18,597 nucleotides of DNA from Sedimenticola sp. (GTDB lineage Bacteria > Pseudomonadota > Gammaproteobacteria > Chromatiales > Chromatiaceae). The stretch covers positions 1-18,597 of the forward strand of contig JBEVXT010000432.1 of assembly GCA_040505955.1 (NCBI GenBank), in the 5' to 3' direction. Shown piece after piece: positions 1,313-17,722 of the stretch (positions within the stretch are counted from its first letter, which is position 1; every line of letters starts with the position of its first letter). The position numbers and the translations under genes are program-made. The notes beneath the pieces are model-generated. The model had not been told where the DNA came from, did not search any database, and saw only the letters and a program-made list of their open reading frames with translations.

Positions 1313-1349
1313 CGGGTAACTATTCAGCACAGTAATCCAGAACTCAGGC

Positions 1350-1413
1350 GTAGGAGCGAACTTGTTCGCGAAGAGCATGTTTCGTAGTCCATCGCGAACA
1401 AGTTCGCTCCTAC
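1350..1413. repeat. REP-like extragenic palindrome, copy 1: 22-bp perfect inverted arms GTAGGAGCGAACTTGTTCGCGA around a 20-nt loop
   Basis: Left arm 1350-1371 and right arm 1392-1413 are exact reverse complements. Each arm also contains the self-palindrome GCGAACTTGTTCGC. An identical structure recurs at 17575-17638. The outer sequence GTAGGAGCG...CGCGAAG matches the Pseudomonas-type REP consensus with a different core. Confidence 0.85.
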
Positions 1414-1561
1414 AACACCTCTGTTCCACCATCACTGTGGTTTTCAGGATTTTGCTACAGAGCCGGTTTAAGGATAAAAAGACACAAAATGCGTGTTTAT
1501 GCGTGCAGATGATTATTTTTTAACACTGAAGAAACACCCACTCGGGATACTTCCCTATTGA

Positions 1562-2428
1562 TCAATGTACTGTTTGGTCCAATCCCACCTCGAATTTTGT
1601 AAATATAGCTTGGCTCATGACCCTGTTTGACATTTTCGAATTTAAACCCCCTCCCATGCCGTAATAGCGGGTTATCTGACTGTACAACTGCAGAAGCCAG
1701 GATTGAAATTTTGGTATCATGATCATTTTATAGGAATCTACAGCACTTGGTTTCCCATTACTCTTCCAGGCCTTGATCGCGAACTCAACTTCCGGCGTGA
1801 GAAGGGTCATAAAGCGGTTGAACAGAAACGAAGGAACGCGATCATGCTTTTTAAATAATCGCATACCGATTTGTTCCTCAATCCTACTACCTCCGCCACC
1901 CTCCGTGCGCATTCGGCTATCCATAGCTCGGTATATCCACCCGTCATAATCTCTGGTGGTTTCAGACTGCGATATAGAGAGACCAATGGATGGCTCTAAC
2001 CCAACAGTAAGTATTGTTTTGCTCAGTTTCTGCCCCGACCGAAAGGCCCCCAGGGTGTTAAAGGCTACCTTACTTCCCTTATTGAATTTCGCAAGCATCT
2101 TATCGGTCCGGTCAAAGTTCAAGCGGTATACCGCTCTTTTATCCAGACTCCCACAGCCACGATATGTGGCAGACATTTTTACACAATATCCAGCCATTGG
2201 CAGCTCCCCGATGAATAGAGTATGGATTTTGAGGGCGCGCCGGTTACTGACTCTTAATTTAAATTCCTGCATGCATGAAAAGGCAATGCACTTGAGTGCG
2301 GCTTGTTTTGCAAATTCATACGTTTCTGTTTCACTTTCCTTTTGTGCTTTAGCCATATGGCTCAACCAAAAAAACACAACAGAATTTCTCATGGATTGAG
2401 ACCGAATAAAATCATGTATTGAGGACAT
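1562..2428 (-). CDS. Hypothetical protein, 288 aa, no recognisable family; lies in an AT-richer stretch
   Basis: Longest ORF in the region. A strong RBS AAGGAGG sits 4-5 nt upstream of the ATG at 2428. No signal peptide or TM segment is evident. Base composition is visibly lower in GC than the flanking genes. Confidence 0.55.
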   Translation of the reverse strand: MSSIHDFIRSQSMRNSVVFFWLSHMAKAQKESETETYEFAKQAALKCIAFSCMQEFKLRVSNRRALKIHTLFIGELPMAGYCVKMSATYRGCGSLDKRAVYRLNFDRTDKMLAKFNKGSKVAFNTLGAFRSGQKLSKTILTVGLEPSIGLSISQSETTRDYDGWIYRAMDSRMRTEGGGGSRIEEQIGMRLFKKHDRVPSFLFNRFMTLLTPEVEFAIKAWKSNGKPSAVDSYKMIMIPKFQSWLLQLYSQITRYYGMGGGLNSKMSNRVMSQAIFTKFEVGLDQTVH

Positions 2429-2669
2429 GGGACCTCCTTATAGGTCTGACAATCCAACAGAAAAACAGATGTGTGAACTGCGTTGACCACAGGATAAGGC
2501 ATCCATGGCTCCCCTGACAACCACCTTTCATATCACGGATGTGACACACCCCATCGAGATATCCACCATAGCCGTGGCAGACAGGATCAGCAGAGACAGA
2601 ATCAGGACACCCATCATTTAGTGCTACCCCTATTCCCGCTGATACCGAGCGCTACTTGATAAGGCTGAA

Positions 2670-3058
2670 ATAGAATTACTACCTCCCGATGAAAGCCTAA
2701 GGAAGAAAGGGCAGCGCGGTCGATTGAAGCGAACAAAGGCTCGTAATCTTCTTGAGCGCCTGTGCAACTTTGAGGATGACGTGTTGCGGTTTATGGTAGT
2801 AAAGAAGGCACCCTTTACCAATAATCAAGGTGAGAGAGGCCTGCGAATGACCAAGGTTCATCAGAAGGTGTCTGCTGTTTTCGTTCTATGATGGGTGCAG
2901 AGTATTTCAGTCGAATTCACAGCTATATATCCGCCTGCCGCAAAAATGGGGCATCGTCCACTGAGGCGCTCAGGCTCTTGTTCCAGGGTGAGATGTCTGC
3001 GTTCATCAATCCAGGTACCGGAATAGTTACAATCCGCCCCCATTTTTTCCTCAGTTAA
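2670..3058 (+). pseudogene. Remnant of a DDE transposase gene: only the C-terminal ~125 codons remain, 5'-truncated and split by a frameshift near 2880-2891
   Basis: Frame A (2670-2891) translates to ...ARNLLERLCNFEDDVLRFMVVKKAPFTNNQGERGLRMTKVHQKVSAVFVL*. Frame B (2891-3058) translates to MGAEYFSRIHSYISACRKNGASSTEALRLLFQGEMSAFINPGTGIVTIRPHFFLS*. Joined, they reproduce the conserved C-terminal signature of a transposase family (PFTNNxAERxxRMxKVxQKxSGxFRSxxGAxxFxRIRSYxSTCRKNG...LFxGxxPxFI). This signature is IS66-C-terminus-like or ISL3-like; the exact IS family is uncertain. There is no upstream catalytic part because the opposite-strand gene occupies 1562-2428. Confidence 0.6.
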
Positions 3059-3134
3059 AACCGTTTCAACCGCTCAGTGGTTTCTGGATCGAGGAAACCG
3101 GTAATCGTTGCTTCCGTTTCGCGCCGCAGTGCGG
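3032..3134. repeat. Direct repeat DR1: a ~103-bp copy, ~96% identical, of the 3' end of the enoyl-CoA hydratase gene plus ~20 bp of its downstream sequence
   Basis: 3032-3134 reads atccgcccccattttttcctcagttaaaaccgtttcaaccgctcag...cgcgccgcagtgcgg. It aligns with 13235-13338 with 3 substitutions and 1 indel, and the sequences diverge immediately outside. The repeat ends in the palindrome CCGCAGTGCGG. Confidence 0.85.
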
Positions 3135-3311
3135 TTGGGTTGGAGACAACCAAAACCAAGAGCAGAAGAATGCTTACAAGTCGGCTTGGCGGTTTCTCCT
3201 TATGTGACCGTTGATGACAGTAGGTGTTCTATTCTCGGACAGGCTCCTAAATGTCTCCTTTTGGCATGAGTTATACCGGACAGTAGTGAGTGAAAATAAT
3301 ACTTCTCTGAA

Positions 3312-6300
3312 TCACTCATTATCTTCACCACTTGGCTTTTTTCTCTTCGGCGCATAGCGCTTTGTTTTTACCTGTTCGATACTTTTTAAATCATCACGTA
3401 GTGTTCGAATTTCCGAAAAGATGTCGACCATATTCTGCTGGGTTTTTAGGTCGATTTTCAGTTTACCCTCCATCGAATGAACCAGTGGGTAGATGCTGTG
3501 TTCGAATGTGTCTGCGATAACCGAGAGGATTTTACTGAGCCCAGGCACCGGTTGATTGACCACTTCAATATTGTAATCGACGTTTTGCAGTGCCTCCCTG
3601 ACTCTGCCGATCTCGGCAACCACGCTTTCCCGCCCCTCTTTTTCTGATATATCAGCCACTGGCGAGAGCCGTTGATCCAGAAGTGTGGCAATGGTTTCCA
3701 TGCTTTTTCCCAAATCATAGAGTTGGGATACCACCTTGGCACCACTGTCGGCATCATCACCACCGAGACTTCTGTTTTTCAGAAATGCCTGAAGAATTTC
3801 AGCCCAGCGCTGCCGTTCCTGTTCTGTTTGGTTGCCTCGTAGTTCCGCCAGTTTAAGCAGGTTCTCCTCTGCCCCGGATGTCAGCAGTTGTGCCTCTCCG
3901 AGATAGTGGTCGCTGATCATCTGCATCAGCTCTTGGTTATTCATTACGGCTGATACTTTTTCAGCCATCTTATTCATGTTGCGATAGCTGCCCTGTAGTT
4001 TGAAGGTCGGCTCTGTGCGATATCTGTCATCTTGTGCGGCAGAGGCGATATAGCGTTGATTGACCTTCAGCACAATATCCCGAATCTGGTAGAGCTTTTT
4101 CAGCACTTCGACAATTTCGTTGATCTCCGCGCCACTGTATTGATGTGCCAACTCGGTGCTGGCGATGTTTTTCCCCTTTGCCATCTGCATCAGTTTATAG
4201 ACATCGTCCATCTCTCTGGTGGCAAGTGGTGCCAGTACTCGGTTGGAGGTCAGGCAGTTCTCGATATAGCTGGAGGCAAACTGCGCTTGCATACCGCCCA
4301 GAATGTCACCCAGGTTATAGATATCGGCACGATTTGCCAGCATATCCGGTACCTTGAACACTTCGCCCGATTCGGTATAGGGATTGCCAGCCATGACCAG
4401 ACAGAATTTCCGCCCTCTCATATCGTAGGTTCTTGTTTTGCTTTTCCAAACCCCTTCGATCCTGCGGGTACCATCACCAAGGGAGATGAATTTTTGCAGA
4501 AACTCGGGATTGGTGTGCTGGATATCATCGAGATAGAGCATCACGTTATTACCCATCTCGAAGGCCAGGTTGAGCTTTTTCAACTCCTGTGCTGCAGTGG
4601 CATTCGGTGCCTGGGCAGGATCCAGTGACAATACGCTGTGGCCAAGCGAAGGGCAGTTGATTTTCATAAAAATCAGGCCCAGCCTGCTGGCTACATACTC
4701 CATCAAAGTGGTTTTACCGTAACCGGGTGGCGAGATCATCATCAACAGCCCCATCAGATCGGTGCGCTTGCCTTCACCGATACTCCCCATCTGCTTTGCC
4801 AGATTGTCACCAATCACCGGCAGGTAGGCATCGTTGATCAACCGGTTTCTGACAAAGGAGCTGAGTGGCTTGGCCTTGAACTCTTCGAGATGAAGCCCCT
4901 CCCGCTCTTCGCTGATGATCTGGTGACGGGTTTTTAGATAGCGATGGTAGCCGGGTATTACAACCGCCTGGTGGTGTTGCTGGCGGAGCAAGAAATCATC
5001 CAGCGAAAACTGTAGTGTCTGTTTTTTTATTCTGGAGTGGTCACCCAGCAAGCCAGTTATGGTCAGCTCAATATCGGCTTCTGTGGATCTGCGGTCGATG
5101 CGCTCATCACTATTGATAAGTGCGACTGCTTCTGGAATATAGCCCGCCAGCCTGCTGAGCTGTTTACTCTCCACCAGCGCTTCCAGCCAGGCTTCAGTGA
5201 GTGCCCAGCGCTGTGCCACTCTGCCTTTAAGCTTATCCAGAGATGTCTGGTACTTACGCCATGATGAATCGGTCAAAGCTCGCTTCAGCTCATCGGCCAG
5301 TTCTCTGGCGTAGCGACTGACGATAAATTCGGCTCGCTCTCTACCCAACTCCGCAACCAGGTAACCGGCCGCACGCTGAATATCGAGCGCTGACACCGGA
5401 ATGACATGCGTTTCGAGAAAGAGGGTCAGTGACTGCTCCACTTCCGCCACCAGCAGTTGAATCGCCTTCGACTGACTGAGTTCGTGACGCATCTGATAGG
5501 CTGACTGAGCACGCTCGGGCCAGCTCTTGTGGGTGAAGTTAAATGTTGCACTTTGAGTCGATCCGGGCTGCAGGTTGGCCCAGAATATCTGAGCCAAACC
5601 CCGACTGAGCGGATCATAGCGCAGCAGGTCACCCCGCTCCAGGGCAGGCAACAGCTGTTTTAAAATAAGTGCGGCATCATGATCATGCACCCCCTTCTCA
5701 TATCCTTCCTTGTAACGGGGAGAGGAGAACTCCCTTGCCAGCTTCAACAGCCCGCTCTCATCACTCAATAGCCCGGTCAGACGCTCTGTGGTGAGGTTAC
5801 TCTCCTGCCTTTCTGCTGCCTCGATGATCAGATTGGCCAGATACTCACCCCGATAGAGCTGAGGGCTCTCGGATTCCAGCGGCATCTCCCAATATTGCCG
5901 TAGCGCCATCAGTTGACTGTTTTCGATCGGCTCGAAAAACTCGGTTCCGGTCAGGTGCAGGTTCAACTCCCCATCACGAGGAATGATGGTCAGGTCTAAC
6001 TCCTGGGTGTTAACACTGAAGCGATGGCGTGGCCCCAACCTGATGACTTGACCACCCGCCTCGTAGATCTCGGACTTATCCCTCAGTGAGCGAAGTGCCT
6101 GTTCTTTGATCGATTTAAAGCGCGCTTCGACATCATCCGCCTTTACCCGGCTGTCCAGTTCACCCAGGCGCTCTACCAACTCCCGCACCTTGATCACCAG
6201 GGCATCCGATGCAAAGTAGGTATTCAACTCATCCGCTTCGGTAAACTTTAGTGAGCGTCGTTCAATATTACTGAGGATACGGGATGCGGCATCGGCCACA

Positions 6301-8627
6301 GACTGTGCCTTACGCTGTCGCTCATCCAGCAGTTGTTGTTTGTGCGTTTCAAAGGATTCATAGAGCTCTTCCCGCTTTGCCATAATATCGGCAAGGAACT
6401 CGTCATGATCACTGAATTGGCTCTCCAGCTCTTCGAGTTGCACCAGCAGACGTGACAGTTGCTCATCACAACGCTCTGGGGTGGTGGCCATTCCGAGGGC
6501 GTTGGAGATACTTTGGGAGAAGAGTTTAAACTGTGCGCTGAACTGGGCTACCGCCTCTTCTGAACCAAGACTTTTCTGTTTATGCCTAGCACTGGCTTTG
6601 CTTTGATTGAGCTGAGAGTAGATTCCCGATATGGCGTCAATAATGCGCGTTCTAACGGTAGCATCCTGCACTTTGAGGGTGGTCATCAACTCAGACAACA
6701 GGTCAAGTCCCGATGCTGTGGATTCAATCACTTCAATCAGGGGCGTCAACAGGGCGATGGTATCCGCCTTTTTCACCTCTCTGTTCAGATTGTCTATCTT
6801 ATCCTGATAGGGCGACAACGCATCCTCTGAAGCCAGAAAGGTGATGGTTCTCCCGCTCAGACTTTCCTGACGCTTTATTAGCTCCTGATCCAACACATCT
6901 ATACGCTGAAGGTCGATATAGCGATGCTCACGAATCGTAGTCAGATGCCCTCTTTGATGACGAAGGCTATCCAGGGCCCGCACATAATCCTCTGCTGTAT
7001 GCCAGCTATCAGGCTGGATACTACGCAGGATCTCCTGCTGCTTTGCCTCCGCCTCTGCCATGCTCTTTTTTGATTGTCGGCGGATACTTTCAACTTTCTC
7101 AAACTCATCGATCACCAGCTCTGCCGTCGTTGCAATTTCATGCACGATAGTGGCTATCTCATCGACCTCTTCATCCTCAATCCAGTAGTGGTCGTCAAAC
7201 AGGCCCTGGGAGGATTTATTGAGATCTTCGTAGTGGCGTACCGATACCTCCTGATTCTCGATAATTCGACTGATGCTGAAGAGGCTGGATATACCCCGCA
7301 CCAGTTCGGCATTGCCGATGCGCCCCATAAAGCTCTGGCTGGCAGGCGTCTGACTGGCAAACTCCTGGCTTGTATAGGGGGTACTCCATACCTGCATGGG
7401 ATGGATGCGGGTCGGCTCACTTTCCGCAGAGAAGATAATGATGGTGCCATCCTCAGCCAAGGCATAACCGTGCCCAAGTATGGGTGTTTTCAACGCCTTG
7501 TTAATCAGGTTATAACCGAACAGTGCGACCTCACCGGCCTCGCGCTCATAGAATATGTAGAGCACATCTTCACCGTTGGGAGAGCGGACAACCCGTTTGA
7601 TGGTATATCCGGACAGGCCATCATCAAAGGTTTTGTATTCACCATTTTGCAGATAGTAACCACCGGGAAATGCAATGCCGTGATCTTCAGGCAGTTGCAC
7701 ACAGGAGTCACCGATCGCATCTATGCGGATAACACTTTGGGTCTGGGTGTTGAATACCAGATAGCGCCAGTTCTCTTCTCGATAGGGACGTATCTTCAGA
7801 AGAATAAGGGAGCCGATCTCTGCGTAGTGGATAGCCGCGTCGTCCAGAGACTGGGTCTTGTCTTCCACCGGTTCCCGGTAGATACCCAAACCATCCTTTG
7901 TGTTGTTCTCAACCTTGATCGTTAGATCTCCGGTGACGGTTTCAACAAATACTTTATCGAGGATGGAAACGTGGGGATGCGGACCATTGACAATATCTTC
8001 ACGGGTGGTTTCACTCCACTCAAAGTCGTGGGCAGGAGGCAGTTGAATATCTCGTTCACCACGATTATCCATGTAGGTAACTTCGCTGCCATCTGCGGAA
8101 ACAGACCAACGGAATACACGCAGATCATCCAAACGCTCGCCGATCTGAAAACCCGCCAGTAGCTTCCCCTGTTTGACTGTAAGTTCTACCAGACGCGTGT
8201 GTTTGTAGTAGCGATAGAGTTCTTCAAAATCTGTTCTGAAGTTTGCCTGATCCAAAAAGCTACCCGTGATGGAGGCCGCCTCGATCTCATAACCTGCCTT
8301 ACCACCATTAACATGAAACAGGGAAAATACATCGCTTATCCTGGTCTCCTTTTTCAGACCGATAAAAACGTTGTAGCCAAATAGCAGATACGTACCCACC
8401 TGAACAATGTCCCGGGCAACACTGTTGTTCTCGGTGCGAACACGAATACGTGCAGCCAGTTCCATGCCGGAACTTCCGAACTCACTCAGGCGGCTATCAT
8501 TAAGACGGGTGGTCGCTTGACTCAAGCGATTGCCCTGGTTCAGCAGCCGCTTACGAATCACCTCGTAAGCACCGCCTTCTGCAACCGCACTGTTAACAAT
8601 GCCGGTGGTATCTTCCTGCTGTACCAT
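3312..8627 (-). CDS. Giant 1771-aa protein with a beta-rich N-terminal domain (~aa 1-480), a long coiled-coil/helical region (~aa 500-1150), a single MoxR/AAA_5-type AAA+ ATPase module (~aa 1280-1480) and a helical C-terminal region
   Basis: Uninterrupted 5.3-kb ORF. An RBS AAGGA lies 9 nt upstream of the ATG at 8627. Walker A PPGYGKTTL is at nt 4704-4730 and Walker B MLYLDDIQH at nt 4517-4540. The downstream segment CLVMAGNPYTESGEVFKVPDMLANRADIYNLGDIL matches the MoxR/AAA_5 pattern (xATxNP...LPxALxxRF). The central region is rich in E/L/R/Q heptad-like sequence. The gene is transcribed in the same direction as the flotillin gene and separated from it by 214 nt. Confidence 0.85.
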   Translation of the reverse strand: MVQQEDTTGIVNSAVAEGGAYEVIRKRLLNQGNRLSQATTRLNDSRLSEFGSSGMELAARIRVRTENNSVARDIVQVGTYLLFGYNVFIGLKKETRISDVFSLFHVNGGKAGYEIEAASITGSFLDQANFRTDFEELYRYYKHTRLVELTVKQGKLLAGFQIGERLDDLRVFRWSVSADGSEVTYMDNRGERDIQLPPAHDFEWSETTREDIVNGPHPHVSILDKVFVETVTGDLTIKVENNTKDGLGIYREPVEDKTQSLDDAAIHYAEIGSLILLKIRPYREENWRYLVFNTQTQSVIRIDAIGDSCVQLPEDHGIAFPGGYYLQNGEYKTFDDGLSGYTIKRVVRSPNGEDVLYIFYEREAGEVALFGYNLINKALKTPILGHGYALAEDGTIIIFSAESEPTRIHPMQVWSTPYTSQEFASQTPASQSFMGRIGNAELVRGISSLFSISRIIENQEVSVRHYEDLNKSSQGLFDDHYWIEDEEVDEIATIVHEIATTAELVIDEFEKVESIRRQSKKSMAEAEAKQQEILRSIQPDSWHTAEDYVRALDSLRHQRGHLTTIREHRYIDLQRIDVLDQELIKRQESLSGRTITFLASEDALSPYQDKIDNLNREVKKADTIALLTPLIEVIESTASGLDLLSELMTTLKVQDATVRTRIIDAISGIYSQLNQSKASARHKQKSLGSEEAVAQFSAQFKLFSQSISNALGMATTPERCDEQLSRLLVQLEELESQFSDHDEFLADIMAKREELYESFETHKQQLLDERQRKAQSVADAASRILSNIERRSLKFTEADELNTYFASDALVIKVRELVERLGELDSRVKADDVEARFKSIKEQALRSLRDKSEIYEAGGQVIRLGPRHRFSVNTQELDLTIIPRDGELNLHLTGTEFFEPIENSQLMALRQYWEMPLESESPQLYRGEYLANLIIEAAERQESNLTTERLTGLLSDESGLLKLAREFSSPRYKEGYEKGVHDHDAALILKQLLPALERGDLLRYDPLSRGLAQIFWANLQPGSTQSATFNFTHKSWPERAQSAYQMRHELSQSKAIQLLVAEVEQSLTLFLETHVIPVSALDIQRAAGYLVAELGRERAEFIVSRYARELADELKRALTDSSWRKYQTSLDKLKGRVAQRWALTEAWLEALVESKQLSRLAGYIPEAVALINSDERIDRRSTEADIELTITGLLGDHSRIKKQTLQFSLDDFLLRQQHHQAVVIPGYHRYLKTRHQIISEEREGLHLEEFKAKPLSSFVRNRLINDAYLPVIGDNLAKQMGSIGEGKRTDLMGLLMMISPPGYGKTTLMEYVASRLGLIFMKINCPSLGHSVLSLDPAQAPNATAAQELKKLNLAFEMGNNVMLYLDDIQHTNPEFLQKFISLGDGTRRIEGVWKSKTRTYDMRGRKFCLVMAGNPYTESGEVFKVPDMLANRADIYNLGDILGGMQAQFASSYIENCLTSNRVLAPLATREMDDVYKLMQMAKGKNIASTELAHQYSGAEINEIVEVLKKLYQIRDIVLKVNQRYIASAAQDDRYRTEPTFKLQGSYRNMNKMAEKVSAVMNNQELMQMISDHYLGEAQLLTSGAEENLLKLAELRGNQTEQERQRWAEILQAFLKNRSLGGDDADSGAKVVSQLYDLGKSMETIATLLDQRLSPVADISEKEGRESVVAEIGRVREALQNVDYNIEVVNQPVPGLSKILSVIADTFEHSIYPLVHSMEGKLKIDLKTQQNMVDIFSEIRTLRDDLKSIEQVKTKRYAPKRKKPSGEDNE
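4180..4800 (-). other. AAA+ ATPase module of the giant protein (Walker A GYGKTT, Walker B LDD, sensor/NP motif)
   Basis: The motifs were read directly from the translation. It is a single AAA module, not a tandem pair. The NP(x)ESG / ANRADI arrangement indicates the MoxR/dynein-like AAA_5 clade rather than the classical Vps4/FtsH clade. Confidence 0.7.
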
Positions 8628-8733
8628 TATTTGATCCTTATTTAATCACCAAGGTAGCTACTTATCGATGTACTGAATAGTGGGTGTCTTTCTGAAAACA
8701 GGTAGCCTTACACCCCGTACGATGGTGCTGCAA

Positions 8734-8760
8734 CACAGATCACGGCAGTGGTGATCTGTG
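8734..8760. promoter_or_regulatory. Perfect 10-bp stem / 7-nt loop hairpin (CACAGATCAC-ggcagtg-GTGATCTGTG) in the flotillin-to-AAA+ spacer; no U-tract, so not a classical terminator
   Basis: Exact inverted repeat read from the sequence. It lies ~80 nt downstream of the flotillin stop and ~105 nt upstream of the giant gene start. It is a candidate RNA processing/stability element or protein-binding site. Confidence 0.5.
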
Positions 8761-8794
8761 TTACCTCTGGTAAAAATACCCTCTTGACGGGGTA

Positions 8795-8817
8795 TTGAAT
8801 AGTTACAAACTATTCAA
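8795..8817. promoter_or_regulatory. 23-bp AT-rich perfect palindrome TTGAATAGTT-ACA-AACTATTCAA, 25 nt downstream of the flotillin stop; candidate dimeric-regulator site
   Basis: Exact palindrome. Its half-site GAATAGTT(AC) is the same motif that recurs at 1315-1328, 3019-3032, 10821-10834, 10932-10944 and 8672-8685. Confidence 0.5.
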
Positions 8818-8841
8818 TATGTATAAAGAGCGAGACGCTCT

Positions 8842-10785
8842 TCACTCGCGATTAGCGCTCTCTTTGTCACTACGACTATCGATAAGCTTTTCCAGCAAGG
8901 CGGTAACCAGGCCACTCTTGCTACTGAAACCATCGACGGCCTTTCCCAGCGAGAGTGATTTGGCAAAGGTATCGAAGAAGTGTCCTTCACCGCCCACGAT
9001 GTCAATATTGGCGGCTTTAAGTGCATTGGAAAGTACCCCGGCATTCTCTCTGGCAACCTCTTTACCTGCATCAATGGAAGCAACCGCCTCTTTGAATGCG
9101 GTCTCCAGACCCATACGGAACTCTTCATGGTCACGGGCCTTGTCGCTCATGCTATCCATGGCTTCAAACTTATCCACCAGGCCCTCGGCCTCGGCCTTGA
9201 ACTGCTCGCGTGTAACATCCGCCTCAGCCATACCGATCTTCTTCACCGCATTTGCTTCGGCGCTGCCTTTTGCGTCGATAACACTGGCCTCTGCCCCACC
9301 CTGTGCTCCGGTGACTTTCGCTTCCGACTCACCTTTGGCATCGATTACGCGGGCTTCAGCCAGCCCCTCTTTCTCCAGCGCATCGGCCTTTGCCTCCTGT
9401 ACCTTGGCTTCCGCAAGACCTGGTGCTGCCACCTCGGCCTGTACACCCTCAGCCAGTTTCTTCTTACCATCCGCCTCCTTGGCAACCGCCTCAAGTTCTG
9501 CCTGAGCGATGGTGGTAATCTCATTGGCGCGGTGTTTTGCGGAAAGTTCTTCCGCTTCAGCCGCTTTCACCAGTTTCACCTTCTCTTCATCTGCCTGGGC
9601 TTCCGCCCCAAGCACCTGTACCTGCTTGGCACGATCTGCCTCTGATACCTCACGCACCTCTTTGATGCGCTCCTCCTCGATGGCAACTGTTTTATCGACT
9701 ACCACCCGCTCTCGAATCACATTGGCAATCTCTTTCTTCTCCAGTTCGATCGCCTTCTCAGCTTCAATACTCTGCAACTCAACTTCACGTTCACGGGAGA
9801 CGATCTCCAGATCCTTGGCCCGGGTTACTTTCTCCACTTCGATCACAACTGCACGCTGGCGGTTCTGCTCCGCCACCTCAATCTCACGCTGCTGATTCTC
9901 CTTCTGAACCGCTAAATCCTGATCAGTAGAAATGGTGGCCGATTCAGATTTCTTTCGCTCCTCCTCCTGAATGCGGATGGTCTCCGCCTCTTCCCTTGCT
10001 TGTATGCTTGCCACCTCTCTTGCCTGCTTCGCCTCCGCATCTGATTGCTGGCGCTCCAGCTCAAGCATCGATTCAATGGTTTCGACATTCTTCTTCTTGA
10101 TCGCTAACTCTTCATCCCGCTCAAGTATATTGGTGTGTATATTTTGAGCAGCTGTCAGGGCTGTGATTTTTTTGATACCTTCGGCATCGAGGATATTGTT
10201 TGGATCAAGGGATGATTTCGGCGTCTGTTCAAGATAGTCAATTGCGACATCCTCAAGCACATAGCCGTTCAGATCATCACCGATCACTTCAATGATTTTC
10301 TCTCGGAATTCCAGACGATTTTCAAACAGCTGTACAAACTCTATCTGCTTACCAACAGTTTTCAATGCTTCTGAAAATTTGGCATTGAACAACTGCTCTA
10401 CCGACCCCTTGTCAGATGCCCTGTCGGCACCCAGAGACTTAGCCACCTTGAGCACATCTTCTGCGGTCTCATTCACTCTGAGATAGAATGCAACGGTAAT
10501 GTCTGCACGCATATTATCTGCACATATCAGCCCATCTTTTCCCCGGCGATCAACCTCAAGGGTAATCAGGGAGACCCGCATCAACTCCTTCTTATAGATA
10601 ATCGGGTAGACCAACGCACCGGTAAAGTGCACCTTTGGCTTGGCGCTCATGTCATTCACGATCAGGGCCGTACCCTGATCAACCTTGATATAGAATGCCT
10701 TGAACAGTATCGCCAACCCCATCAGGATTGCGAAAAATATTCCAGCACCAGTAGCTATCGGCATAAGTACAGATAAATCAGCCAT
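8842..10785 (-). CDS. yqiK: Flotillin-like SPFH/band-7 protein (YqiK family), 647 aa, with an N-terminal TM helix and a long A/E/K-rich C-terminal repeat region
   Basis: N-terminal membrane anchor IATGAGIFFAILMGLAILF. SPFH-core-like segment (...MRADITVAFYLRVNE...). Extended EA-repeat coiled coil, with tandem units AEARVIDAKGESEAKV / AEASVIDAKGSAEANA at nt ~9250-9360. RBS GGAG lies 8 nt upstream of the ATG. The gene order NfeD then flotillin matches the yqiJK pair. Confidence 0.85.
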   Translation of the reverse strand: MADLSVLMPIATGAGIFFAILMGLAILFKAFYIKVDQGTALIVNDMSAKPKVHFTGALVYPIIYKKELMRVSLITLEVDRRGKDGLICADNMRADITVAFYLRVNETAEDVLKVAKSLGADRASDKGSVEQLFNAKFSEALKTVGKQIEFVQLFENRLEFREKIIEVIGDDLNGYVLEDVAIDYLEQTPKSSLDPNNILDAEGIKKITALTAAQNIHTNILERDEELAIKKKNVETIESMLELERQQSDAEAKQAREVASIQAREEAETIRIQEEERKKSESATISTDQDLAVQKENQQREIEVAEQNRQRAVVIEVEKVTRAKDLEIVSREREVELQSIEAEKAIELEKKEIANVIRERVVVDKTVAIEEERIKEVREVSEADRAKQVQVLGAEAQADEEKVKLVKAAEAEELSAKHRANEITTIAQAELEAVAKEADGKKKLAEGVQAEVAAPGLAEAKVQEAKADALEKEGLAEARVIDAKGESEAKVTGAQGGAEASVIDAKGSAEANAVKKIGMAEADVTREQFKAEAEGLVDKFEAMDSMSDKARDHEEFRMGLETAFKEAVASIDAGKEVARENAGVLSNALKAANIDIVGGEGHFFDTFAKSLSLGKAVDGFSSKSGLVTALLEKLIDSRSDKESANRE

Positions 10786-10965
10786 AACAGTTTCTCCATT
10801 TCCTTTTAGTTAACTATTTTGGTAACTATTCAGCGGATGTGAAGTATAGTTCGGGATCGGAGTCGATTGCGGCAAGAAACTACAAATTCCCCTACCATCT
10901 TCAACCCAATCAACTCCGACCCCGTACCCAACTGATATAGTTACGCTCGAATTATTGTAAATACA

Positions 10966-11658
10966 CTATATTCCAGAAAACTCTTTTTCTGAAATGACGT
11001 GGTAGATATTTTCATTCTCCAGGTACTCAATGAGCACAACACTATCACCTCTTTTGAATACCTGTTCTCCGATAGTCCGCACCTTCAATATCAACCCCGC
11101 ACCACCATCTTCCAGCGTCGCTTCTCCAAAGTGATGATCAACTCTTGAGGTTCGAACAACCGCAATCTGCCCCAATACAATTTTTTCTGTATGCTGCTGC
11201 GCCTTGTTGAACAGCTGACGCAAGGGTCTTATAACAACGGCTGTAATCATGGTCGCAACAAACAGTGAGGCGATGAATATTGGAATACCTGCCAGGTACT
11301 TCAGTACTCCCTCTGGAAAAAATCCCAGAAGAAAATAGACCAGGTAGTAACAGAGAAGCCATCCAAACAGTGATATAAACGAGACAGTGATGGTGACAGG
11401 AACACCATGAAGTCCAAATTTCATCATCAGCCCGGCTAATGCATCAGGCGTGGGTATCTCACTATCCGCATTGAGACCAGTAGGGCCGTCGAAATCAGGA
11501 AGGTCAATATCAAGGATATCGATATCCACCAGTCCCAATACGGCCACTAACCAGTAGAGCGCAACCAGCGCCAAAAAAAAGGTGAAAATGGCTGTTGGGA
11601 AGGATGAAATATTCTGATAAAACGGATCCATCCCTTCATTTAGGAATATCGCAAACAT
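10966..11658 (-). CDS. yqiJ: NfeD-like membrane protein (YqiJ / DUF1449-like): N-terminal multi-TM region plus C-terminal OB-fold-like domain
   Basis: Hydrophobic helices (FTFFLALVALYWLVAVLGLV, VSFISLFGWLLCYYLVYFLLGFF, IFIASLFVATMITAVVI). A C-terminal beta-rich tail (IVLGQIAVVRTSRVDHHFGEATL...GDSVVLIEYLENENIYHV) is typical of short NfeD partners of SPFH proteins. RBS GAGG lies 5 nt upstream of the ATG. The gene sits immediately upstream of the flotillin gene. Confidence 0.7.
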   Translation of the reverse strand: MFAIFLNEGMDPFYQNISSFPTAIFTFFLALVALYWLVAVLGLVDIDILDIDLPDFDGPTGLNADSEIPTPDALAGLMMKFGLHGVPVTITVSFISLFGWLLCYYLVYFLLGFFPEGVLKYLAGIPIFIASLFVATMITAVVIRPLRQLFNKAQQHTEKIVLGQIAVVRTSRVDHHFGEATLEDGGAGLILKVRTIGEQVFKRGDSVVLIEYLENENIYHVISEKEFSGI

Positions 11659-11706: not shown

Positions 11707-12396
11707 TTACCTGTTTTTTCGCTTCAGGCGCGCAAGAATATCATCCGCACTGCTGCTTTTGGCCGTGATACCCGCCTCTTCGAGTTTCGTCTGAAGCGTT
11801 GACTCAGAGCTCTCTTCTGCCAACTCAGCAGCGGCTGTCATCTGCGCACCTTTTAACGCCTGCTTCTCCTTAATGCGCTCAAGGGAATCCATCGCTGTAC
11901 GCAGTTTGGTATTGGAGCCACTATGGCGCTCAGCAACTGCCTGCTGTGCACGCTGTACACTCTCAGTAGCCTTGACCGTATCAACCTGCTGCTTGAGTCG
12001 TTTAATATTGCCCTCTGCCTGCTGTATTGCCAGGCGCAACATTATTGAACTCTGGGCATAGCCGATCCCGGACTCAGTCTCCAGCTGCAGCTGATTCTCT
12101 ATATGGGCTATTTTTTCAGCAACCTCTTGAGCAAGATTTTCGTCACCTTTATCGAGAGCCTTAAGCGCATACTCCTCGTACTCTTTGACCTGACTTTTCA
12201 GTTTACTGCCCTTCTCTTCAGAGAGTTTCTGGTGCGCCATGATGGCAGCCAGGCCATTCCTGGACTGCTTGAGTTCTTCGGAGGCGTCGCGCACCTCCTG
12301 ATCCAGAATTCGAAGTGCCTGACTGTCAATGATCGCTTCACCCGCCTCATTTGCGCCGCCACGGAGTGCGGTCAACATTTTTGCCCAAACATTCAT
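11707..12396 (-). CDS. PspA/IM30/Vipp1-family protein (YjfJ-like; ESCRT-III superfamily), 229 aa
   Basis: The translation MNVWAKMLTALRGGANEAGEAIIDSQALRILDQEVRDASEELKQSRNGLAAIMA... shows the characteristic PspA N-terminal amphipathic helix followed by a long coiled coil and a basic C-terminus (ILARLKRKNR). The start was set at the second in-frame ATG (12396; 1-nt gap after the upstream stop) on homology to PspA N-termini. The alternative ATG at 12417 would overlap the upstream gene by 20 nt. Confidence 0.8.
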   Translation of the reverse strand: MNVWAKMLTALRGGANEAGEAIIDSQALRILDQEVRDASEELKQSRNGLAAIMAHQKLSEEKGSKLKSQVKEYEEYALKALDKGDENLAQEVAEKIAHIENQLQLETESGIGYAQSSIMLRLAIQQAEGNIKRLKQQVDTVKATESVQRAQQAVAERHSGSNTKLRTAMDSLERIKEKQALKGAQMTAAAELAEESSESTLQTKLEEAGITAKSSSADDILARLKRKNR

Positions 12397-12397
12397 T

Positions 12398-13036
12398 TCA
12401 GATTGCCCCTTTAGCATCGACCTGGATATTCAAGTACTCACTGTAAGCTTCGGTCGCCTGAATTACATTGCTGGCCAGCACCTCTATCTCGAAAACAACG
12501 CTGGTAAGAATAGAGCTCGAACTCAGTGCGCCAAACATATGGTAGTAATCATCATCTCCCGACATGCTGTCCAAGCTCACCGAGGAGAGTGGAAAGTACT
12601 TATGGGTTCGAAGTAGGGTTTCATTAAATGCAGACGGGTCTTTTACATCTGAAATCGCCCACAACACCACTTCTGCAATAATCTGTTCGCCGGAAACCGT
12701 CAGGAAGATCGGTAGATCACCGTACTCATGCATGACAATATGCAGCGAAGACTCAATCCCTTCGATCAATTCAAGTGAAGCCTGTCCAGTGGTAAATAAC
12801 TCCACATTCTGCAGTGCTTCGTAGAGAGTAGTAGTGGTCCATTCCGGTGATTTCATGGTCATCATTTCTTCTCCTGGTGACGTAGTAGAGAGATCGGCCT
12901 TTCGTAAATGTTTTTCCAGCGCTGCCAGTCGTTTGGCATTTTCAGGCCGTATCCAGATCTCTTTTTTAACCAACCCCTGCTCACGCAGCTTTCTTCTATA
13001 TTCTCGTTGGTAATACGCTGAAGTTTTCTTGCTCAT
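12398..13036 (-). CDS. First gene of the operon: YjfI-like (DUF2170-like) protein with an extra ~55-aa highly basic N-terminal extension
   Basis: The position immediately upstream of a YjfJ-type PspA gene mirrors E. coli yjfI-yjfJ. The C-terminal ~150 aa (from MMTMKSPEWTTTTLYEALQN...) is compatible with DUF2170 size. The N-terminus MSKKTSAYYQREYRRKLREQGLVKKEIWIRPENAKRLAALEKHLRKAD is Lys/Arg-rich and looks like a small DNA-binding (RHH/Arc-like) module. The DUF2170 assignment is from context and memory, not alignment. Confidence 0.45.
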   Translation of the reverse strand: MSKKTSAYYQREYRRKLREQGLVKKEIWIRPENAKRLAALEKHLRKADLSTTSPGEEMMTMKSPEWTTTTLYEALQNVELFTTGQASLELIEGIESSLHIVMHEYGDLPIFLTVSGEQIIAEVVLWAISDVKDPSAFNETLLRTHKYFPLSSVSLDSMSGDDDYYHMFGALSSSSILTSVVFEIEVLASNVIQATEAYSEYLNIQVDAKGAI

Positions 13037-13043
13037 AATCCGT

Positions 13044-13072
13044 ATTATAGAATATTACATGTAAGCTGTCAA
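13044..13072 (-). promoter_or_regulatory. Consensus sigma70 promoter for the yjfI-like to AAA+ operon: -35 TTGACA (13067-13072), 17-bp spacer, -10 TATAAT (13044-13049)
   Basis: The minus-strand reading is tttTTGACAgcttacatgtaatattcTATAATacggattATG. Both hexamers are perfect consensus with optimal spacing. The -10 ends only 7 nt before the ATG at 13036, which implies a leaderless or near-leaderless transcript. Confidence 0.65.
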
Positions 13073-13087
13073 AAACTTACATGTAAT
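13054..13087. promoter_or_regulatory. Operator-like twin palindromes: two copies of TTACATGTAA, centre-to-centre 22 bp, one overlapping the -35 flank and one inside the promoter spacer
   Basis: ATTACATGTAAG-ctgtcaaaaa-CTTACATGTAAT is a 12-bp inverted repeat. Each half contains the self-complementary decamer TTACATGTAA. No other copy occurs in the window. Confidence 0.6.
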
Positions 13088-13234
13088 TAAACTTCGTCCT
13101 AAGGTTGAACCCTCTGTCTTTAACCGGTGGTTGTTGAGTCTCATCTCATGCAGGTTTGAGTGATGCTCTTTTTTTGTCACGAACGAACTTTTTCCTTGCA
13201 TCACGGGGCGATCACTCGGGGTCGCCTAACATAA

Positions 13235-13338
13235 ATCCGCCCCGATTTTTTTCCTCAGTTAAAACCGTTTCAATCGCTCAGTGGTTTCTGGATCGAGGAA
13301 ACCGGTAATCGTTGCTTCCGTTTCGCACCGCAGTGCGG
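13235..13338. repeat. Direct repeat DR2: the partner of DR1, forming the authentic 3' end (last ~26 codons) and downstream flank of the enoyl-CoA hydratase gene
   Basis: Aligned with 3032-3134 as described for DR1. The 10.1 kb between the repeats holds the PspA/flotillin/AAA+ operon. Confidence 0.85.
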
Positions 13339-17516: not shown

Positions 17517-17722
17517 GTAACTTCTCAATAAGTTCGTGCACCGGGCCCTGCCAACTGAGAAGGCCCACCTGACTGTAGGAGCGAACTTGTTCGCGATTAG
17601 CTTCGTAGAACACTCTTCGCGAACAAGTTCGCTCCTACGCTAAAAGTTTCGTAATCCCTCAATAATCCTGTGTAGTGGAACAACTCATACACCCCTATGG
17701 CACGGGCTTATTGAGAAGTTAC
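17517..17722. repeat. 206-bp MITE-like intergenic element: perfect 16-bp terminal inverted repeats GTAACTTCTCAATAAG / CTTATTGAGAAGTTAC enclosing REP copy 2, with a degenerate internal direct copy of the terminal repeat
   Basis: 17517-17532 is the exact reverse complement of 17707-17722. Similarity extends a further ~7 bp inward (CGTGC). 17651-17668 (gtaatccctcaataatcc) is a third, degenerate copy. The element fills the dctP-dctQ spacer. Confidence 0.65.
17575..17638. repeat. REP-like extragenic palindrome, copy 2 (same 22-bp arms as 1350-1413; the 20-nt loop differs but shares TTCGTAG)
   Basis: Arms 17575-17596 and 17617-17638 are exact reverse complements and identical to the arms of copy 1. 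Confidence 0.85.

Follow-up and report, generated by a model that had tools for sequence, protein, structure and literature searches.

A recurrent intergenic motif in a Sedimenticola contig is the terminal repeat of ISBst12-type IS66 elements and MITEs

In terms of mechanism, IS66 is among the least understood families of insertion sequences (ISs). Members of its ISBst12 group, such as ISBst12 and ISDge4, are about 1.5-1.8 kb long and carry one open reading frame for a DDE transposase of ~450-490 aa with an IS66 domain. They have short terminal inverted repeats beginning 5'-GTAA and duplicate 8 bp of the target. In ISDge4 from Deinococcus geothermalis the terminal repeats are GTGACTACTCAGCA / GTAACTGCTCAGCA, the transposase has 449 aa and the direct repeat 8 bp (PMC12898284). 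Bacterial MITEs derived from ISs, such as MITEPsy1, which derives from ISPsy2 (PMC3189936), and the Correia elements, are short, non-coding and bounded by the terminal repeats of the parent. Their target duplications are as long as those of the parent, and they can form hairpins and occur in several, mostly intergenic, copies; their mobilisation is presumed to occur in trans. The elements described here share these properties of both groups, with the terminal repeat GTAACTATTCAGC in 80 loci and with 8-bp duplications seen in relatives and in MITEs elsewhere, not around the window copies. However, unlike functional ISBst12-group ISs, the stretch of Sedimenticola DNA analysed here (18.6 kb, below called the window) has just a 400-bp 3' fragment and tips, and unlike MITEPsy1 and the Correia elements, the MITEs have an IS66/ISBst12 parent and fall into at least 55 unrelated clusters that have only 12-nt tips in common.

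The motif and its transposase

The 10-mer GAATAGTTAC is found four times in the window, at 1316-1325 (minus strand), 3021-3030 (plus), 8797-8806 (plus) and 10822-10831 (minus), against 0.01 expected copies, and none of 200 dinucleotide-preserving shuffles reached four. For the exact copies, this agrees with the first-pass annotation, according to which the exact or near-exact intergenic copies exceed chance. All sequences quoted there are found where it placed them, including the 14-mer GGTAACTATTCAGC common to 1315-1328 and 10821-10834, the complete 23-nt palindrome TTGAATAGTT-ACA-AACTATTCAA at 8795-8817, the partner tip CTGATATAGTTAC at 10932-10944, inverted relative to the 10821 copy, and the partial copies at 8672-8685 and 10811-10818. 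Allowing one mismatch to GAATAGTTAC adds no copies in the window. With two mismatches 16 copies are found and 9.9 expected, so that most degenerate copies are not separable from chance by count alone.

A genome scan gave 80 loci (1.04 Mb of sequence) from Desulfobacterota, Gammaproteobacteria, Nitrospirota, Planctomycetota, Bacteroidota and others. Here, the exact 10-mer is present only as GTAACTATTC upstream of a transposase gene and as GAATAGTTAC just after it. It lies within 110 bp of the end of the transposase match in 54 of 72 loci, and the 12-mer with at most two mismatches does so in 69 of 72. In three independent sources, homologous transposase C-terminal genes end ...CTGAATAGTTAC, followed by unrelated DNA. 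The consensus, for which 32 distinct left ends and 43 distinct right ends of ISs were used, is 5'-GTAACTATTCAGC at both ends when read inward, and nothing further inward is conserved among the 80 loci; the commonest tip variant among the loci sampled is GTAACTATTCAG.

The tip-bounded ISs have a modal length of 1.69-1.74 kb, and most of these elements combine that length with one open reading frame of 440-488 aa, which leaves no space for other genes, such as the tnpA/tnpB accessory genes of classical IS66. The full-length transposase of the relatives matches NCBIfam NF033517 with 289 bits (cut-off 180) and PF03050 with E = 2e-45. Target duplications of 8 bp are visible in the IS loci, for example L021, L024, L045, L061 and L062.

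The motif GAATAGTTAC is the tip of ISs and MITEs. We have high confidence in the wider reading that GAATAGTTAC/GTAACTATTC is the outermost part of the 12-13-bp inverted repeats of a widespread lineage of single-ORF ISBst12-type IS66 ISs (~1.7 kb, with one DDE transposase of ~470-490 aa) and of MITEs of roughly 105-135 bp, and that the window copies record their transposition into intergenic DNA. Judging from how DDE transposases work, the tip would be the sequence that the transposase binds and cleaves, and such a role would keep it near-invariant across phyla while the adjoining inner DNA varies freely.

Remains of elements in the window

The features of the window are as follows.

1316..1328, plus strand: putative solo left-end inverted repeat (IRL), GTAACTATTCAGC, 13/13 to the consensus
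2628..3010, plus strand: IS66-family transposase pseudogene fragment, last ~130 of ~472 codons
3018..3030, plus strand: right-end inverted repeat (IRR) of the putative decayed IS, CCGGAATAGTTAC, 11/13 to GCTGAATAGTTAC
8674..8685, plus strand: degenerate tip-like sequence, CTGAATAGTGGG (9/12)
8763..8806, plus strand: right arm of a putative truncated MITE, terminal tip TTGAATAGTTAC (11/12)
8807..8817, plus strand: tip-like half, AAACTATTCAA, abutting the MITE tip and completing the palindrome
10811..10818, plus strand: incomplete tip-like sequence, TAACTATT, flanking the 10822 MITE next to its left tip
10822..10944, no strand: 123-bp MITE with tips GTAACTATTCAGC (10822-10834) and GTAACTATATCAG reverse complement (10932-10944)

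The transposase pseudogene contains a frameshift and in-frame stops. It matches positions 226-283 of 284 in PF03050 (E = 3e-08) and 299-386 of 387 in NF033517, and tblastn with 11 full-length transposases likewise supports the assignment. Using a profile HMM of 12 full-length transposases, the matches in the window are limited to positions 344-470 of 472. The remnant ends ...GGAATAGTTAC at 3030, and a 104-bp duplicate (DR1) starts at 3031. The region 2628-3030 would represent a dead IS, of which a 3' fragment with the right tip is left.

At 1316, the likeness to real IS left ends reaches ~1336; by inspection, GTAACTATTCAGCACAGTAAT agrees with the left ends of the ISs in L022 and L049 at 20 of 21 positions. 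No transposase similarity follows this tip, using tblastn with the 11 transposases or the profile HMM of 12, and it is probably a solo left end. The distance from the left tip at 1316 to the right tip at 3030 is 1715 bp, i.e. the modal IS length, and by a rough estimate the chance of such a spacing by coincidence is ~1%. Given this spacing, the picture of two separate remnants may be incomplete. In a less likely alternative, 1316-3030 would be a single IS-sized shell of 1715 bp in which low-GC orphan DNA (ORF288) took the place of the first 1.3 kb. According to the same profile HMM, the interior (1329-2627) shows no similarity to transposase, and no target duplication flanks 1316-3030 (GGTAACGG / AATCCGCC).

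For the element at 10822-10944, the tips match the consensus at 13/13 and 12/13 positions (one inserted base) and the arms form an extended imperfect inverted repeat. It contains no ORF and its hairpin fold has z = -2.5. Over ~93 nt it shares 72-75% identity with the MITEs L118_249, L176_7448, L218_5753 and L219_3076. L118 (MOXF01) is from the same strain and belongs to the same assembly as L012/L013, both identical to the window. Its copy, of 126 bp, has tips without mismatch and an exact 8-bp duplication, GAATACTA; the other three are from a sister assembly, MOXH01. With the L118 copy, and the arm at 8763-8806 as a further member, several related copies of this MITE exist in the genome. At 10822-10944 itself no target-site duplication is present (flanks CTATTTTG / GCTCGAAT), which we read as an old insertion, and the element would be complete yet old. 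The sequence TAACTATTTTG, next to its left tip, also adjoins an independent MITE insertion in L104. The MITE sits between the NfeD-like and flotillin genes. In symbiont-like Sedimenticolaceae, elements within operons, as here in the NfeD-like/flotillin case, may affect expression.

The arm at 8763-8806 is 80% identical over 46 nt (E = 5e-08, pairwise) to the right arm of the MITE L219_3076 (MOXH01000271.1), and the region is missing from the orthologous spacers of relatives. It is best described as the right arm of a truncated MITE, and the abutting tip-like sequence completes the palindrome. A true left tip has a terminal GT, which is missing from that half (8807-8817). Among all fetched loci, a comparable right-to-left tip junction is found in L216 only, with an 8-bp spacer, and tip-like sequences are modestly enriched beside insertion sites. 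The degenerate sequence at 8674-8685 is possibly, on weak grounds, the end of another decayed element: a decayed MITE in L176 is closed by a similar tip, CTGAATAGTGAT, and copies as degenerate as this one are not above chance by count.

The 8-bp target duplication is missing around every window copy, and insertion events therefore cannot be traced within the window. The sole near-identical assembly (L012/L013) has the same insertions, and the spacers of the next relatives have diverged too far for alignment, with no empty site seen. The annotation of the contig gains what are read as a dead IS, a complete and a truncated MITE, and a solo end, an ordinary kind of feature.

Regulation, recombination and REP elements

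The palindrome had also been suggested as the binding site of a dimeric regulator. The motif would then be an operator half-site, with 8795-8817 as the full operator, of a dimeric factor controlling the flotillin and DUF3686 ATPase genes. Two copies do lie upstream of these minus-strand genes, at a distance of 36 nt from the flotillin start and ~170 nt from the DUF3686 start. One copy forms a perfect 10+10 palindrome, and the 10822 copy overlaps with a weak match to a sigma-70-like promoter, TTCACA-16-CAAAAT (10843-10816, minus). However, the motif is missing from the orthologous loci of three relatives. L094, L097 and L099 contain orthologous five-gene clusters with 80-88% protein identity and shorter spacers, and no copy with at most one mismatch to the 12-nt GTAACTATTCAG is found anywhere in their 13-16 kb. 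Another palindrome, TTACATGTAA, present twice upstream of the DUF2170 gene (the first of the cluster), is kept in all three and served as positive control for this conservation test. The remaining two exact copies sit downstream of convergent genes, and the same 12-mer bounds ISs and MITEs in unrelated phyla and habitats. Because the motif is not conserved in the relatives, the operator reading fails; we consider it largely refuted and highly improbable. This removes a false lead, as the motif does not define a regulon, and the copies in the Sedimenticola contig are transposon scars rather than regulatory sites.

A second proposal was that the copies are recombination sites, i.e. scars joining the modules of a mosaic region, either mediated by IS ends or site-specific. 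It finds weak support in the tip at 3030. Directly after this tip begins a duplicate (3031-3134, 104 bp, 98% identical) that repeats the 3' end of an enoyl-CoA hydratase gene at 13234-13338. Together the duplicates flank the whole five-gene psp/flotillin cluster, which has different neighbourhoods in relatives, and the flanks of 1316 and 3030 form no duplication. However, the 3030/3031 copy is the only one at such a junction, and the others are intergenic insertions or remnants. The MITE homology accounts for 10822-10944 and 8763-8806 without any role in recombination, and since both are located inside a gene cluster of conserved order, they did not join modules. What stands of the proposal is this one rearrangement junction, and as a general account it is improbable, if slightly less so than the operator.

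The first-pass annotation also considered the motif as a possible end of a MITE/REP-associated element family. The MITE part of this proposal essentially holds, while the REP part does not, as the parent is an IS66-family DDE transposase. In the corresponding reading, the motif belongs to a REP/REPIN system moved by RAYT, and GTAACT-type motifs end the REP-containing units. Like the elements found here, REP/REPIN sequences are short intergenic repeats that form hairpins, and REP-like hairpins do occur beside some tips, both here and in the sister assembly. A 64-nt hairpin (GTAGGAGCGAACTTGTTCGCG...) begins 34 nt past the 1316 copy, and the same hairpin is located within 17517-17722. The GTAACT-type motif precedes the REPs by 34 nt in one case (from 1316 to 1350) and by 58 nt in the other (from 17517 to 17575), as had been noted. 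In the sister assembly, tips also adjoin GTAGGAGC...GCTCCTAC hairpins; in L218 a hairpin at 2756-2832 is found beside a tip-like sequence at 2834-2845, and in L219 one at 6126-6204 after a tip at 6094. However, near the two window copies the motif is located outside the REP hairpins, and a REP hairpin is missing from all but one of the four exact window copies and from nearly all of the 123 MITEs found in metagenomes. In 69 of 72 loci the motif stands at the ends of a DDE (IS66-family) transposase gene, and its IS relatives and MITEs have 8-bp duplications. To our knowledge, RAYT/REP systems (IS200/IS605-like HUH enzymes) make none. The element at 17517-17722, whose terminal repeat had been likened to the motif, resembles it in GTAACT but not beyond, and has its own 23-nt inverted repeat, GTAACTTCTCAATAAGTTCGTGC. 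We thus give the REP reading very little probability. As candidates for the parent, a REP-associated tyrosine transposase and an IS200-like gene were rejected in favour of the single-ORF ISBst12-type IS66 DDE transposase; the window contains no RAYT-like gene.

MITEs with the same tips in metagenomes

Scanning metagenomes with the pattern GTAACTATTCAG-N80-110-CTGAATAGTTAC gave at least 120 contigs with elements of 104-134 bp bounded by the IS66-type tips. A perfect 8-bp duplication surrounds 56 of the 123 elements, and 16 more have one with a single mismatch. These 72, among 120 that could be scored, are true MITEs by virtue of their target duplications. The 123 elements sort into at least 55 sequence clusters, unrelated to one another except for the 12-nt tips, and in only one element is the similarity to a sampled IS end extended. 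They would be mobilised in trans.

We found no report of MITEs from IS66/ISBst12 parents in the literature searched, where the GTAACTATTCAG family appears undescribed. It is our tentative proposal, held at somewhat less than even confidence, that GTAACTATTCAG defines a very large, apparently undescribed set of bacterial MITEs of ~105-135 bp with 8-bp duplications and at least 55 unrelated interior families, mobilised by ISBst12-type IS66 transposases. If this is true, a terminal sequence of 12-13 bp suffices for recognition, and new insertions favour sites beside existing tips beyond expectation, which would explain the tip clusters and the palindrome of the window. The near-invariant 12-13-bp tip across phyla, together with the many unrelated MITEs, points to the minimal substrate of the ISBst12-type transposase. 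The tip also provides a simple pattern to annotate ISBst12-type elements in metagenomes. The tip-bounded MITEs come from soil, gut, marine and symbiont metagenomes.

Identity of the recurrent motif

The recurrence reported by the first-pass annotation is real and has an explanation: ISBst12-type elements of the IS66 family, and their MITEs (short non-coding derivatives bounded by the tips of the parent IS), carry the motif as their terminal repeat, which makes it an ordinary kind of feature. The window spans the whole of an 18,597-bp contig from a Sedimenticola sp. MAG. In it are the end of one dead IS, a complete MITE, a second MITE that is truncated and has an odd palindromic junction, and a solo end. 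A search of the window for exact GAATAGTTAC gives four matches, at 1316-1325 (-), 3021-3030 (+), 8797-8806 (+) and 10822-10831 (-), against 0.01 expected, and four were reached in none of 200 dinucleotide-preserving shuffles of the window. The claim that the copies are not due to chance is thus borne out, and all the sequences and coordinates quoted for them were correct on re-reading. Allowing one mismatch adds no further copies, and allowing two gives 16 matches vs 9.9 expected, so the weaker copies proposed earlier cannot be judged from the count alone. All four exact copies are intergenic in the gene map of the window, where no Rfam families were found:

161-1312, + strand: glucose/sorbosone dehydrogenase
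1562-2428, - strand: ORF288, an orphan ORF
about 2630-3010, + strand: IS66-family transposase fragment, frameshifted
3312-8627, - strand: DUF3686/AAA protein, 1771 aa
8842-10785, - strand: flotillin-like protein
10966-11658, - strand: NfeD-like protein
11707-12417, - strand: PspA
12398-13036, - strand: DUF2170/YjfI protein, first gene of the psp/flotillin cluster
beyond 13036: enoyl-CoA hydratase, AMP-ligase and TRAP transporter genes

The copy at 3021-3030 lies directly 3' of the transposase fragment. Relatives of this fragment were compared from an NCBI assembly, eight JGI metagenome contigs and an ENA contig, three sources independent of each other; in their loci the gene ends in, or is followed by, ...CTGAATAGTTAC, with unrelated DNA beyond. 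Scanning 185,579 species genomes with an alignment of transposase C-terminal fragments gave 80 loci, from Desulfobacterota, Gammaproteobacteria, Nitrospirota, Planctomycetota, Bacteroidota, Chloroflexota and others. Within their 1.04 Mb the exact 10-mer is restricted to two places per locus, GTAACTATTC usually ~1.7 kb upstream and GAATAGTTAC 10-82 bp past the transposase match. Among the 72 loci that reach far enough past the transposase, the 10-mer is exact in 54, and the 12-mer is found in 69 when up to two mismatches are allowed; tip variants among the loci include CTGAGTAGTTAC, CTGAGCAGTTAC and CTGGATAGTTAC. The consensus of the IS ends, from 32 distinct left and 43 distinct right ends, is GTAACTATTCAGC, and inward of it the same ends show no conservation. 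Target duplications of eight bases are evident in relatives, for example ATTATCTG (L021), AAACTATG (L045) and AGGCAAAT (L061).

The elements have a single ORF of 440-488 aa, which scores as an IS66-family transposase (NF033517, 289 bits with a cut-off of 180; PF03050, E = 2e-45), and are of the single-ORF ISBst12 type of this family. For ISDge4, a member already published, the terminal repeats are GTGACTACTCAGCA / GTAACTGCTCAGCA, the transposase has 449 aa and the direct repeat 8 bp (PMC12898284). From the type of the bounded elements and the comparison with ISDge4, it follows that the motif is the tip of the terminal inverted repeat of the group; among the meanings first proposed, end fragments of an element family was therefore essentially the right one. 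By the general mechanism of DDE transposons, the transposase would bind and cut at this tip. Searching the literature for the motif string gave nothing but eukaryotic primer sequences, which are unrelated.

Tip-bounded remnants in the window

A profile of 12 full-length transposases matches the region 2628-3030 only at profile positions 344-470/472; this region is what is left of a dead IS, its 3' part including the right tip, CCGGAATAGTTAC. At 3031, immediately past the tip, begins a 104-bp duplicate (DR1) of 13234-13338, 98% identical, which is the 3' end of the enoyl-CoA hydratase gene with 25 nt downstream, and the tip at 3030 therefore stands at a rearrangement junction.

The direct repeats, 3031-3134 and 13234-13338, bracket the whole five-gene cluster from DUF2170 to the DUF3686 ATPase (~10.2 kb), which in relatives has other surroundings. 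Such an arrangement resembles the insertion of an island at a gene's 3' end; no integrase is present with this putative island. A short-read assembly of the same strain is broken at both 104-bp repeats (L001). In JGI metagenome loci L003-L010, a 157-aa C-terminal fragment of the same type of transposase ends in the tip; past it, eight different contexts share an identical stretch of ~115 bp. That dead IS end is carried within another repeated mobile unit, beside a Mu-transposase-like gene.

The solo end at 1316-1328 is a perfect 13-mer in left-end orientation, and by inspection the IS left ends of two fetched loci (L022, L049) match the 1316 end at 20 of 21 positions. Past this end come a REP-like hairpin (1350-1413) and orphan DNA of low GC, with no transposase sequence. 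The left tip (1316) and the right tip (3030) are oriented correctly to each other and span 1715 bp, which is the modal IS length, and the transposase fragment is within ~33 bp of its place in an intact element starting at 1316. By our rough estimate, such an arrangement has a ~1% chance of being coincidental. Searches of 1316-2628 by tblastn and by profile HMM on six-frame translations did not find the missing two-thirds of the transposase, 1329-2627 shows no transposase similarity on either strand, and the flanks of the unit, GGTAACGG / AATCCGCC, are not a duplication. The unit is either a coincidence or one IS with its 5' 1.3 kb replaced, and an IS-sized unit with a foreign interior is modestly new. 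Only its last 400 bp are transposase-derived, and the rest has 42-48% GC vs 50-58% in the flanks. The orphan ORF288 (288 aa) is on the strand opposite to the transposase fragment and has no Pfam family; among 1.84 billion representatives, only a same-strain fragment and one weak match were found.

The complete MITE, 10822-10944, is 123 bp end to end, with tips GTAACTATTCAGC and, as reverse complement, GTAACTATATCAG; its arms form an extended imperfect inverted repeat (fold z = -2.5). It has 72-75% identity over ~93 nt to four MITEs, three from the sister assembly MOXH01 (L176, L218, L219) and one on contig MOXF01000025.1 of GCA_002832875.1 (L118). Two other contigs of GCA_002832875.1 are identical to the window across both spacers, so this assembly is the same strain. 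The L118 copy has 126 bp, perfect tips and a perfect GAATACTA duplication; the window MITE has no target duplication and is read as an older member of the same family. For an empty-site comparison, the sole near-identical assembly, GCA_002832875.1, has identical spacers, and no alignment was obtained with those of the next relatives, at 85-88% and 80% protein identity. Searching with the window spacers and the 17517-17722 element by blastn matched only tips in the transposase-related loci L002-L099, and MITE-family members in the metagenome MITE set. At 10816-10843 (-) a sigma-70-like sequence, a match at consensus level only (9/12), is directed at the flotillin-like gene; its -35 element, TTCACA, belongs to the MITE end, its -10 element, CAAAAT, to the flank, and the start codon of the gene (10785) is 31 nt past the -10.

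The truncated MITE, 8763-8806, has 80% identity over 46 nt to the right arm of the MITE L219_3076, tip included. Directly after its tip, AAACTATTCAA completes the palindrome TTGAATAGTT-ACA-AACTATTCAA, whose right half is without the terminal GT of a true left tip. No convincing sigma-70 match was found at the palindrome. The sequence at 8674-8685 (CTGAATAGTGGG) may, on weak evidence, be a further decayed end.

MITEs sharing the tip and possible insertion beside tips

A metagenome scan for GTAACTATTCAG, 80-110 nt and CTGAATAGTTAC, a pattern with 24 specified bases and therefore negligible chance matches, found at least 120 contigs from soil, human gut, marine and other samples. Among the matches listed, 123 elements are 104-134 bp long, and the flanking 8-bp duplication is perfect in 56 of them and has one mismatch in 16. 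These are MITEs of the ISBst12-type IS group. The 123 fall into at least 55 sequence clusters with the tips alone in common, and only one has extended similarity to a sampled IS end. No paper tying ISBst12 or IS66 to MITEs was found in the searched literature; that MITEs so widespread and diverse have only a 12-nt tip in common is modestly new, as is the hint of insertion beside existing tips.

This hint comes from the target sites and from one junction. Tip-like sequence beside insertions has a mean best match of 6.32 vs 6.02 in AT-matched controls (Mann-Whitney p = 0.0017), and a match of at least 9/10 occurs in 4 of 91 reconstructed target sites vs 0.5 expected. One target site with an 8/10 match (L104) has the same TAACTATTTTG as the flank of the window MITE, 10811-10821. 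The only other right-to-left tip junction in the fetched loci, in L216, has an 8-bp spacer. Together, this junction and the modest excess make insertion beside resident tips plausible as the source of tip clusters. That targets are tip-like in general was rejected; they are merely AT-rich, with tip-like neighbours in modest excess only.

At the L216 junction (1595-1626) two tip-bounded elements abut as CTGAATAGTTAC-GGTTCTTA-GTAACTATTCAG, with exactly 8 bp between tips, as would be expected if the second element had inserted into the target duplication made by the first.

Alternative readings and neighbouring repeats

If the motif were the operator of a dimeric regulator, as the first-pass annotation also suggested, it should be conserved with the genes. 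The five-gene cluster is found with unchanged gene order in three relatives, with flotillin identities of 88% (L094), 85% (L097) and 80% (Thiosocius teredinicola, L099). Their spacers are shorter and the 12-nt tip, with at most one mismatch, is absent across 13-16 kb, and this reading fails because the motif is not conserved in their clusters. As a positive control, a TTACATGTAA palindrome pair precedes the DUF2170 gene both in the window and in each of the three relatives. Assignment to a REP/RAYT system has in its favour that tips adjoin GTAGGAGC...GCTCCTAC hairpins at several places in this genome and the sister assembly. This assignment fails on two grounds: the motif is outside the hairpins, and the transposons it bounds are of DDE type and make 8-bp duplications. 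The reading of the copies as recombination sites holds only for the 3030/3031 junction, and not for the other copies.

The two TTACATGTAA copies of the window, at 13055-13064 and 13077-13086, are 22 nt apart just upstream of the DUF2170/YjfI gene, and the pair is 24-27 nt apart upstream of the orthologous gene in the relatives. Probably this pair is the true operator, or a promoter element, for the psp/flotillin cluster.

The REP-like hairpins, 64-79 nt long, were seen at 1350-1413 and 17575-17638 of the window, 2756-2832 of L218 and 6126-6204 of L219, and none was found in the locus of another Sedimenticola MAG (L015). In the window and MOXH01 they are 0-34 nt from ISBst12-type tips, and one is inside a 352-bp tip-bounded unit, L218 2494-2845. 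The 206-bp element at 17517-17722, between the TRAP dctP and dctQ genes, has no relatives in the fetched loci. Its hairpin is central (17575-17638), and it is bounded by a 23-nt inverted repeat of its own, GTAACTTCTCAATAAGTTCGTGC, with 91% complementarity; the likeness of the motif to this repeat, pointed out earlier, extends to GTAACT and nothing beyond. An 8-bp duplication, now decayed, may account for its flanks, TCACAATC / (C)TCACGATC.
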